DNA from: Candidatus Bathyarchaeota archaeon
Lineage (GTDB): Archaea > Thermoproteota > Bathyarchaeia > 40CM-2-53-6
Length of the DNA: 64,000 nt
Assembly (NCBI GenBank): GCA_963726255.1
Contig: CAVSBL010000002.1
Location: 1,440,001 to 1,504,000, forward strand
Direction: 5' to 3'
This document shows positions 1 to 19,546 of the stretch, one piece after another. The position numbers were made by a program, and so were the translations under genes. Below the pieces are notes generated by a model. That model saw only the letters and a program-made list of their open reading frames with translations. It ran no database searches and had not been told where the DNA came from. Position 1 is the first letter of the stretch. Each line of letters starts with the position of its first letter.

Positions 1-313
1 TCGTCTGCGTGCGCCGGTCAATGTACAAACCTGACCCAAGGTGATCCATCTGCATGTTTCTCATGCGAGCTGTCAACGCGTCGAGAATGTTCACGTAGTT
101 CAGGCCCTCACTCGGTTTCCACTCTGTGACTGGGGAGGGCTCACTCATCGTTATGAGCTTCACGAAGTGTCGTGGAGAACGCTGTTCACTGTGGCCGCCT
201 CGACAAGTAAAGAGCTTTGAGTCCATGAAATCATTGAATTGCTCATAGCTTCCGGCGAACTCAAACTGGAGGCCGCATTTTTGGCAGCAACACAAGAAGA
301 CGCGATTTGACAT
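1..313 (-). CDS. Hypothetical protein with N-terminal CxxC...CxxxH putative zinc-binding motif (partial, runs off window start)
   Basis: Hand translation from ATG at 313 (GAGG just upstream): MSNRVFLCCCQKCGLQFEF...FTCRGGH..., open to position 1. Not in the ORF track. Confidence 0.6.
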   Translation of the reverse strand, partial: MSNRVFLCCCQKCGLQFEFAGSYEQFNDFMDSKLFTCRGGHSEQRSPRHFVKLITMSEPSPVTEWKPSEGLNYVNILDALTARMRNMQMDHLGSGLYIDRRTQT

Positions 314-514: not shown

Positions 515-704
515 TGGCGGGCCCGCCGGGATTTGAACCCGGGACCCTTCCCCAAGAAGGCTTCTCAGCCGGTTTCTTTTCGGGTGGCTTCCCATGGGTT
601 CGAAAAGCCCAGAGGTAAAAGCGTCATCGACACCAGTCTGGCGTCTCCGATGCTCTACCTTTTCAGGATCCAGACTTGAAAGGATCTGACTGAGCTACGG
701 GCCC
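515..704 (-). tRNA. tRNA-Lys(UUU) with four BHB introns (D-loop about 17/17a, 30/31, 37/38, 43/44)
   Basis: Removing 687-661 (27 nt), 646-623 (24 nt), 615-586 (30 nt) and 579-548 (32 nt) gives a 77-nt cloverleaf GGGCCCGTAGCTCAGTCAGGTAGAGCATCGGGCTTTTAACCCGAGGGTCCCGGGTTCAAATCCCGGCGGGCCCGCCA. CCA is encoded. Confidence 0.93.
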
Positions 705-1923: not shown

Positions 1924-1995
1924 ACTCGGGACCATCCTCTCGAAACACACAAGCATTTGGTTAGCCTTTCTTGTAGAGGAGTGACGACCGCGGGT

Positions 1996-2099
1996 TGGCG
2001 CCCTTCGCCAGGAGAAGGCTAGCTGCTCCTTTGGGCGGGATTCGAACCCGCGTCGACGACGTGACAGGCCGTCATCCTAGACCACTGAACGACCAGGGC
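1996..2099 (-). tRNA. tRNA-Asp(GUC) with one BHB intron at 68/69 in the acceptor stem
   Basis: Removing 2031-2004 (28 nt) restores acceptor stem GCCCTGG/CCAGGGC, a 76-nt tRNA with anticodon loop CT-GTC-AC and encoded CCA. Confidence 0.93.
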
Positions 2100-2199
2100 A
2101 TCGGCAACTCAGAAATCCCTGAGCCAGCTTAAAGCATTGCTACAGCATAGGCACTAGGCGCATCTTACTTGTGTAAGGATGGAATAAGATACGGACTCA

Positions 2200-6794: not shown

Positions 6795-6909
6795 TGGCGG
6801 GCCCGCGGGGATTCGAACCCCGGATCCCAGGCTTTCGCCGCGAACGCTCCGAAGGCTTACACGAATCGGTTCCATCTCTGTGTCTTAATCCTGGCTCGAC
6901 TACGGGCCC
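6795..6909 (-). tRNA. tRNA-Arg(UCG) with two introns (29/30 and 37/38)
   Basis: Removing 6877-6857 (21 nt, central helix ACAC/GTGT) and 6848-6834 (15 nt, relaxed BHB) gives anticodon arm CAGGC-CTTCGGA-GCCTG. CCA is encoded. Confidence 0.9.
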
Positions 6910-19144: not shown

Positions 19145-19292
19145 TGGCGGGCCCGCGGGGATTTGAACCCCGGACTTCTGCACTGGCCTTCCAGTTCTAC
19201 AGCTTTTTCCGGGTGTTCCTTAGGGGGTTCGGCAACAATCTCCGCCTCTTTAAGCGGAGCCTGCCGCTCTATCCAACCTGAGCTACGGGCCC
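19145..19292 (-). tRNA. tRNA-Arg(CCU) with three introns (30/31, 37/38, 45/46); C at position 33
   Basis: Removing 19260-19228 (33 nt), 19220-19205 (16 nt) and 19196-19176 (21 nt) gives a 78-nt tRNA with A20 and anticodon arm GCAGC-CCCCTAA-GCTGT. Confidence 0.85.
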
Positions 19293-19382: not shown

Positions 19383-19546
19383 GCGGGGATACCCGAGCCA
19401 GGTCAAAGGGGCAGGACCACCAGCCCGCTGGTGGGGCCATACTTAAGATCAGAACTTGCCTTGGGCAAAGAGAAGGCATCCTGTGGCGTAGAGCCCACGT
19501 ATGGACGCGAAAGCCTTCAGGGGTTCGAATCCCCTTCCCCGCACCA
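19383..19546 (+). tRNA. tRNA-Leu(UAA) with three introns (30/31, 37/38, variable arm)
   Basis: Removing 19416-19440, 19448-19477 and about 19-21 nt within 19486-19512 gives a class II tRNA of about 88 nt with CAGGA-CTTAAGA-TCCTG, A73 and CCA. Divergent from tRNA-Arg(CCU). Confidence 0.9.

Follow-up and report, generated by a model that had tools for sequence, protein, structure and literature searches.

Introns bounded by bulge-helix-bulge (BHB) motifs at seemingly random positions of transfer RNA (tRNA) genes are a textbook feature of Crenarchaeota-like archaea. We describe here what is very probably such an intron in the tRNA-Asp(GUC) gene of a Candidatus Bathyarchaeota archaeon from soil (assembly GCA_963726255.1), where it interrupts the 3' strand of the acceptor stem at position 68/69; the gene lies in a stretch of 64,000 nucleotides (nt) of contig CAVSBL010000002.1 (positions 1,440,001 to 1,504,000), hereafter called the window. 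The BHB motif with its two flanking helices has been defined as hBHBh', and noncanonical intron sites listed for Crenarchaeota run from 20/21 to 53/54, 56/57, and 59/60, with a site at 3/4 in Thermoproteales that is termed "extreme" (PMC4090602). Introns at noncanonical sites are cut by tRNA-splicing endonucleases (EndA) of the two-subunit type (PMC5829648, PMC3241643), and the two-subunit enzyme of A. pernix cuts at nonstandard intron positions and cleaves a minihelix faster than a folded tRNA (PMC3241643). Two further points of comparison are the split tRNAs of Chan et al. (2011), which carry a BHB together with a G/C-rich stem of 14 base pairs (bp) (PMC3218864), and a preprint on Asgard archaea that reports a few cases of introns in the acceptor stem. 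Among gene finders, tRNAscan-SE 2.0 extends its candidates by 60 nt to capture introns near the gene ends (PMC8450103).

The intron at 68/69 resembles canonical hBHBh' introns at 37/38 in its 3-nt bulges, the 4-bp helix between them, a predicted cut after the second bulge base, its flanking helices, its short 28-nt hairpin form, and a host genome that encodes EndA and RtcB; unlike them, it takes the 3' strand of the T stem into the motif and leaves a 3' exon of 8 nt. With the noncanonical introns of Crenarchaeota it shares a BHB outside the anticodon region and a putative two-subunit EndA, and the Thermoproteales 3/4 site also falls in the acceptor stem, but the site in the window gene is on the 3' strand of that stem, and the 4/5 or 5/6 sites of its relatives are on the 5' strand. 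As in split tRNAs, an additional helix outside the BHB and built from a non-tRNA flank would hold the pieces together, a role that we propose here; unlike split tRNAs, tRNA-Asp is contiguous, and the helix, of 6 to 9 bp, would form within a single transcript, between its 3' trailer and the 5' strand of its T stem. The host also recalls the Asgard preprint in that nearly all of its tRNA genes are interrupted and many of the introns are missed by standard tools, although the lineage, Bathyarchaeia, is a different one. In the literature that we searched, a scope outside of which lay the primary intron catalogues and in which site notation is unsearchable as such, no text names 68/69, or any site in the 3' strand of the acceptor stem, as an intron position, and 68/69 may or may not already be listed in those catalogues. 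Presentation of a splicing motif that depends on the trailer was likewise absent from the articles and excerpts searched or read within that same scope.

The gene occupies 2099..1996 on the minus strand and consists of a 68-nt exon 1, a 28-nt insert, and exon 2, GGGCGCCA. Along that strand the acceptor sequence GCCCTGG is followed by normal D, anticodon (GTC), and T arms, then by CCA, the insert AAGGAGCAGCTAGCCTTCTCCTGGCGAA (2031..2004), and GGGCGCCA. Both ARAGORN and the Rfam tRNA model RF00005 (43.4 bits) return an intronless call only, spanning 2025/2027..2099/2100, in which three acceptor pairs are mismatched and there is no CCA; Rfam at its gathering score found nothing except tRNA, and a scan by E value adds one subthreshold match of 16.8 bits. 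When the insert is removed in silico, the CCA of exon 1 is joined to GGGC and ARAGORN reports a 76-nt tRNA-Asp(gtc) with 7/7 Watson-Crick acceptor pairs, G73, and CCA. The sequence alone would be equally compatible with a cut at 67/68, and the site is placed at 68/69 because of the BHB geometry and because relatives have G, C, or T as the last intron base or have T68 paired with A5 (base 68 is T in the relatives where base 5 is A). The original prediction, made from the letters of the window without database searches, had described a BHB intron at 68/69 with an 8-nt terminal exon: on rereading the sequence we found its 28-nt insert, coordinates, and helix and bulge assignments all correct, and the intron itself was borne out by a motif finder, by splicing in silico, and by conservation. 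Two other origins of such an arrangement were ruled out, a split or permuted tRNA gene because the exons are collinear and separated by 28 nt, and a self-splicing group I or II intron because a ribozyme core takes hundreds of bases and the insert has only 28. Standard gene finders mis-call the essential tRNA-Asp gene, and in comparable lineages tRNA sets will look defective unless introns at the extreme 3' end are modeled.

We searched the 180-nt region around the gene with a strict BHB finder, which demanded a 4-bp central helix, 3-nt bulges cut after the second base, an inner helix of at least 3 bp, and an outer helix of at least 2 bp, with G-U pairs allowed. It returned a single candidate, the insert at 68/69, and this candidate has the two 3-nt bulges on opposite strands, the 4 bp between them, the flanking helices, and the canonical tRNA after joining that define hBHBh'. 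BHB-like motifs are common by chance, at about 1.0 per random 180-nt piece of the genome, or 0.15 when the inner helix must reach 5 bp (n = 1,500); at a given pair of splice sites the chance is about 2e-5, and none of the 1,500 random pieces had one at the prespecified pair. The motif is therefore significant not as such but because it falls exactly on the one cut by which the acceptor stem is restored, and because it is conserved. The motif borrows one of its strands from the T stem (the 3' strand), so that BHB and T arm cannot exist together.

Conservation was followed from the genus of the host to its class. The host genome (2.42 Mb in 5 contigs, 51% G+C, 9.34% estimated contamination) has 22 congeners in our set, and all 22 match the full 104 nt at 89 to 99% identity; within the genus the exons are almost invariant, and the intron loop differs in length and sequence. 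A pattern built from the end of the T arm and exon 2 only, which leaves the motif strand GGCG free, matched an insert in 42 of the 105 genomes of the order (families f1 to f10, genera g1 and so on): 22/22 in genus g1 of f1, 7/16 in f2, 5/5 in f5, 3/4 in f7, and 4/7 in f9. It matched in 0/36 genomes of the four other genera of the window's family, nor did it match in f3, f4, f6, f8, or f10, and across the class it matched 42/401 genomes, with 0/296 outside the order; because the pattern requires the exact exon sequence, a non-match is not equal to absence. GGCG followed by two variable bases precedes exon 2 in all 42 matches, although the intron has otherwise diverged. Among public genome contigs, a tightened pattern, which replaced a looser one that had given at least 119 stretches, mostly chance bacterial matches, retrieved 35 stretches: 29 titled Candidatus Bathyarchaeia or Bathyarchaeota, 2 titled "archaeon," 3 with bacterial titles, and 1 chance match (L153). 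In the three with bacterial titles (L140, L151, and L159, labeled Acidiferrales, Acidoferrum, and Methylomirabilota), the tRNA-Asp stretch is identical to that of the Bathyarchaeia loci L007, L009, and L018, and these are probably misbinned archaeal contigs. Across 36 distinct sequences all five pairs of the inner helix have changed on both sides, and overall 97.3% of the cells pair, versus 42 to 57% with slid partners; the covariation score was reached by none of 500 shuffles.

The gene itself has the hallmarks of a working tRNA gene. The archaeal TATA consensus is the basis on which we read the heptamer CTTTAAG upstream of G1 as a promoter, probably that of tRNA-Asp, and its flanks are variable among the 23 genus loci (the window copy included). 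No second gene for this tRNA is apparent: only 1 of the 44 GUC-like hairpins of the assembly is an anticodon arm followed by a T loop, a count that a copy with an interrupted anticodon arm would escape. A simple scan of the genome found 29 other tRNA-like T arms that continue without interruption through 7 nt and a single base to CCA, and tRNA-Asp alone among the scanned T arms combines an intact T arm with an interrupted 3' acceptor strand. We consider it very likely that an archaeon of the Bathyarchaeia type has its working tRNA-Asp(GUC) gene here, in a single copy, and we hold with much the same assurance that the intron at 68/69 is real, conserved, and almost certainly spliced. The coordinates of its parts are collected in Table 1.

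Table 1. Features of the tRNA-Asp(GUC) locus and of the splicing-enzyme gene in the window, in window coordinates
Feature	Position	Strand	Support and remarks
Exon 1, G1 to A68	2032..2099	-	ARAGORN, Rfam, and splicing in silico; near-invariant over genus loci
Intron at 68/69, 28 nt	2004..2031	-	Strict BHB; 22/22 congeneric genomes; 42/105 genomes of the order
Exon 2, GGGCGCCA: G69 G70 G71 C72, discriminator G73, encoded CCA; 8 nt	1996..2003	-	Sequence; splicing in silico
Central helix, exon strand C63 G64 C65 C66 (base 66 and part of the 3' strand of the T stem)	2034..2037	-	Paired in 36/36; invariant
Central helix, intron strand GGCG (intron bases 23-26)	2006..2009	-	In 42/42 matches to a pattern that does not require it
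5' bulge C67 A68 / A, predicted cut after A68	2031..2033	-	BHB finder; first intron base A, T, or G in relatives
3' bulge A A / G69, predicted cut before G69	2003..2005	-	BHB finder; last intron base A, G, C, or T in relatives
Inner helix, 5' strand AGGAG (intron bases 2-6)	2026..2030	-	5/5 pairs change on both sides; 97.8% of cells paired
Inner helix, 3' strand CTCCT (intron bases 18-22), 5 bp	2010..2014	-	Covariation
Outer helix, C61 C62	2038..2039	-	BHB finder; invariant
Outer helix, G70 G71, 2 bp	2001..2002	-	BHB finder; invariant
3' trailer ACCCGCG, complement of C48-G53	1989..1995	-	Conserved in the genus, remaining trailer variable
T-stem 5' strand with base 48 (CGCGGG), to which the trailer is proposed to pair	2047..2052	-	Helix 1, 94.1% paired
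TATA-like box CTTTAAG, putative promoter	2128..2134	-	-35 to -29 from tRNA position 1; CTTTAAR at the same distance in 23/23 genus loci
EndA-like subunit gene without the catalytic His (beta-type), 187 amino acids	11462..12025	+	Diverges exactly at the catalytic His

The enzymes for splicing such an intron are encoded in the genome. There are two EndA paralogs, the first of 188 amino acids with the catalytic Y/H/K motif region (G000 C2:748279-748530) and, as its nearest PDB chains, 3p1z_B (E = 7.7e-41), 3ajv_B, and 2cv8_A; the second is the beta-type subunit of Table 1, whose gene lies about 9.4 kb from the tRNA-Asp gene, with the catalytic paralog elsewhere in the genome. We infer that the pair forms an endonuclease of the two-subunit (alpha-beta) heterotetramer type. 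RtcB is encoded as well (E = 8.5e-172).

A pathway can be proposed that starts from what sequence and comparison have shown, namely the gene and the borders of its intron, the conserved and covarying motif, and the genes of the splicing enzymes. Transcription would start a few bases upstream of G1, from the conserved TATA box. In the precursor, C63-C66 would pair with the intron GGCG and C61 C62 with G70 G71, with the hBHBh' motif replacing the T arm. The alpha-beta endonuclease would cut after A68 and before G69 and RtcB would ligate the exons, a chemistry that we carry over from established knowledge of these two enzymes. Ligation would have to come before the T arm, the acceptor stem of 7 bp, and the G73-CCA end, which is encoded, can form. 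To this we add a step with about an even chance of being right, in which ACCCGCG pairs with the freed C48-G53, tips the precursor to the BHB, and keeps the 8-nt exon attached. In this scheme, both the switch between folds and the sequence of events are in silico predictions.

The substrate is an extreme one, its motif drawn from the T arm and its last exon 8 nt long, and it raises the question of how the cut pieces stay together until ligation. The conserved trailer offers a candidate answer. ACCCGCG follows directly after CCA, is itself followed by T or G, and is complementary to a T-stem 5' strand that is free in the BHB fold because the T-stem 3' strand has been taken by the intron. The complement recurs at other spacings in f2, f5, f7, and f9, and in L029 it tracks a change on the T side, where GTGAAGCGGG goes with CCCGC..GCTTCAC. 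The mean energy of the duplex between trailer and T-stem 5' strand is about -13.4 kcal/mol over 33 listed combinations for intron-bearing genes (including one match to a bacterial sequence, L085, that is due to chance), compared with a mean of -6.1 kcal/mol in 29 other tRNA genes of the host and -1.0 to -7.3 kcal/mol in 4 Asp genes with an intronless site. A Watson-Crick run of at least 5 nt is present in 29 of 32 intron-bearing variants versus 0 of 8 Asp genes without the 68/69 intron, 2 of the latter having a 53/54 intron such that the tested 10 nt are intron sequence.

Predicted folds point in the same direction. In folds of the 3' domain, the BHB central helix appears in 26/36 sequences with the trailer and in 0/36 without it, and the T arm appears in 3/36 with the trailer and 35/36 without. 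The precursor of the window gene is predicted to flip from the T arm to the BHB once the 7 trailer bases are present, and the full precursor with a 21-nt trailer has as its minimum-energy fold a rod with a near-BHB, at -52.4 kcal/mol. (A value of -18.1 kcal/mol for an enforced cloverleaf with an intron arm came from a crude constraint and was not used.) In the minimum-energy fold without the trailer, bases 1-4 pair with 69-72 and the T arm is kept. The statement in the original prediction that the acceptor stem cannot form until splicing was accordingly overstated, as 1-4/69-72 and 5-7/66-68 are still able to pair around the insert; its further proposal that splicing precedes end processing finds in silico support for the 3' end only, and for another reason, namely that the BHB fold needs the conserved trailer to win, which would favor splicing before 3' trimming. 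Without the trailer helix exon 2 would hang on 2 bp, hence the tether role proposed for it. That the helix has two roles, laying open the BHB and holding on to the 8-nt exon once cleavage has occurred, is a possibility we rate at about even, and tentatively, at somewhat less than even odds, we suggest the stronger version, in which the trailer would be part of the splicing substrate and would hard-wire splicing first and 3' trimming second. If true, the trailer complement would give a concrete answer to how the pieces are held, together with a testable order of events that is otherwise hard to infer in uncultured archaea.

A number of findings weigh against splicing as proposed or limit the case for it, the part of the trailer included. 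The central and outer helices are invariant in 36/36 sequences and so say nothing on pairing (with exon sequence as the partner, covariation could not arise), and the genome counts are not independent because the genomes are related. Folding-energy z-scores of -0.53 and -0.27 are not significant, and the minimum-energy folds of the gene alone are not BHB; without the trailer the T-arm fold reaches -39.8 kcal/mol versus -30.2 kcal/mol with the BHB enforced. Even with the trailer, the strict BHB with two 3-nt bulges is less stable by 3.4 kcal/mol than the minimum-energy fold, whose second bulge has 2 nt, and the strict outer pairs occur in no minimum-energy fold of the 36 3' domains. The assignment of EndA to the two-subunit type rests on sequence. 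RNA-library contigs of runs X1, X3, and X8 hold tRNA-Asp genes of relatives with the insert in place, and contigs of runs X1, X2, X3, and X8 contain no joint across the intron, although contigs cannot show absence; these contigs may represent precursor RNA or DNA and derive from relatives, for which reasons they are no test of splicing. Their likeness to the window ends at 1989, the end of ACCCGCG, with none beyond 1989 or 2117, and the ten RNA runs listed matched small shares of the query words only. As for the trailer, the fold is also flipped by 60 of 300 shuffled trailers (20%) and by 4 of 29 foreign ones, the complement is missing in 3 of 32 intron-bearing variants (L004, L080, and L167), and 10 of 36 sequences, comprising all of f2 and f5 and most of f9, lack the central helix even with the trailer. 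In L004 (G004), alone among the congeneric genomes, A replaces G at position 49, so that the T stem contains an A-C mismatch and the trailer duplex is weakened to -8.2 kcal/mol; this may be a real variant or a sequencing error.

These findings on the trailer, and the fact that the case for it is nearest-neighbor prediction throughout, speak for an alternative to which we give somewhat less than an even chance: the intron is spliced, EndA alone captures the BHB, the complementarity of the trailer is incidental or otherwise used, and the order of splicing and trimming is unfixed. What counts against this alternative is that ACCCGCG is the sole conserved part of the trailer in the genus, that the complement persists in four further families at differing spacings and follows the T-side change of L029, and that none of the eight Asp genes without the intron carries it. 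That the insert is retained, with the gene working as the gene finders call it (ending near 2027) or decaying as a pseudogene, would agree with the acceptance of the intronless reading by ARAGORN and Rfam and with RNA-library contigs that contain the unspliced form only, yet this reading has to accept the three acceptor mismatches and missing CCA in a genome where 29 other T arms run on through 7 nt and one base to CCA, and it concerns the only tRNA-Asp detected in the assembly; since exon 2, the promoter, and the BHB are moreover conserved with compensatory changes over five families, we judge it very improbable.

Scarcely more likely is an origin as the scar left by a mobile element that had integrated at the 3' end of the tRNA, or an insert kept because it destroys the attachment site (attB) of an integrase, with splicing as a side effect. 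Integrases often use the 3' segment of tRNA genes, and it has been hypothesized in print that disrupted tRNA genes may resist integration. The insert does split that segment, and the remark in the original prediction that it interrupts a potential attB is true by position; it has no functional support, with no integrase or repeat of the tRNA end nearby. The flanking genes encode a trypsin/PDZ protease, an AMP-binding enzyme, a peroxiredoxin, and a methyltransferase; the only other genome match to the tRNA 3' end is the T arm of another tRNA, and a scar would not maintain the BHB by compensatory changes. An artefact of assembly or binning might be suspected in a 5-contig assembly with the contamination estimate given above, but the same architecture in 41 other genomes and contigs of independent runs that bridge the insert leave it practically no chance.

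The intron at 68/69 is one of several in the tRNA-Asp genes of the order. At the relatives' loci examined (L024-L030, L167, L170, L173, L177, and L192-L195), strict BHB introns are found at 4/5 (f2, f5, g2, and g3), 5/6 (f9), the D-arm/26 region, 48/49, 53/54 (g15), and 68/69. The number per gene ranges from four in L170 to none in G039 (f8), a genome in which about one third of the 35 Rfam matches are of intronless length. Within the window's family, g1 has only the 68/69 intron and g15 only the 53/54 intron, and g2 and g3 have 4/5 together with others and an intact 3' end. The BHBs at 4/5 and 5/6 are built with leader bases, a mirror image of the use of the trailer at 68/69, and on the same tentative reading splicing would there have to come before RNase P. 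In f9 (L029 and L167), the 5/6 intron ends in GGCGAA and has the context CGCCCT^GG, like the CGCCCA^GG of 68/69; the context CGCCCW^GG is present twice in tRNA-Asp (-1..7 and 63-70), since the acceptor-stem sequence CCWGG is a palindrome and GC stands at the end of the T stem. One intron may therefore move between 5/6 and 68/69. We rejected the idea of one element inserted in both orientations, as the 4/5 intron showed no likeness by eye to the reverse-complemented 68/69 intron of L026. The tRNA-Asp genes of the order, with up to four introns per gene, form a compact natural series for intron gain, loss, and possible movement.

In the host genome, 15 of the 17 Rfam matches above the cut-off span 90 to 126 nt, and the other two are an intronless tRNA-Arg and the truncated call of tRNA-Asp; as we read these genes, nearly all of the host's tRNA genes are interrupted. 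For all eight genes in which a span of 130 nt held no exact 5' partner, the survey ended either with an uninterrupted 5' strand at a greater upstream distance or without an assignment. When 68 candidate regions were spliced at strict BHBs and rescanned (5,946 spliced states), only tRNA-Asp and the intronless tRNA-Arg were cleanly resolved; the other introns fail the strict definition, and the search consequently yields no genome-wide intron map. The window holds four or more further tRNA genes, at 515-704 (minus), 6795-6909 (minus), 19145-19292 (minus), and approximately 19383-19546 (plus), which are 115 to 190 nt long because of introns; ARAGORN in its default setting reports none of them, and Rfam at the gathering score reports only 19148-19292. 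The last two stand head to head with about 90 nt between them. Elsewhere in the genome, the T arms and 3' ends at G000 C2:459577-459593 (plus), 2180654-2180670 (minus), and 134670-134686 (plus) are near-duplicates of other tRNA genes, two with CTA for CCA and one without a 5' strand within 350 nt, and may represent incomplete copies of tRNAs, second genes, or what is left of attachment sites. Finally, tRNA-Pro(TGG) at G000 C2:1889156-1889300 (plus) carries an insert of about 45 nt inside the T arm, where the 3' strand of the T stem is doubled: CCCGC precedes the insert and CCCAC follows it, and the second copy pairs perfectly and leads into CCCCGGC-G-CCA.

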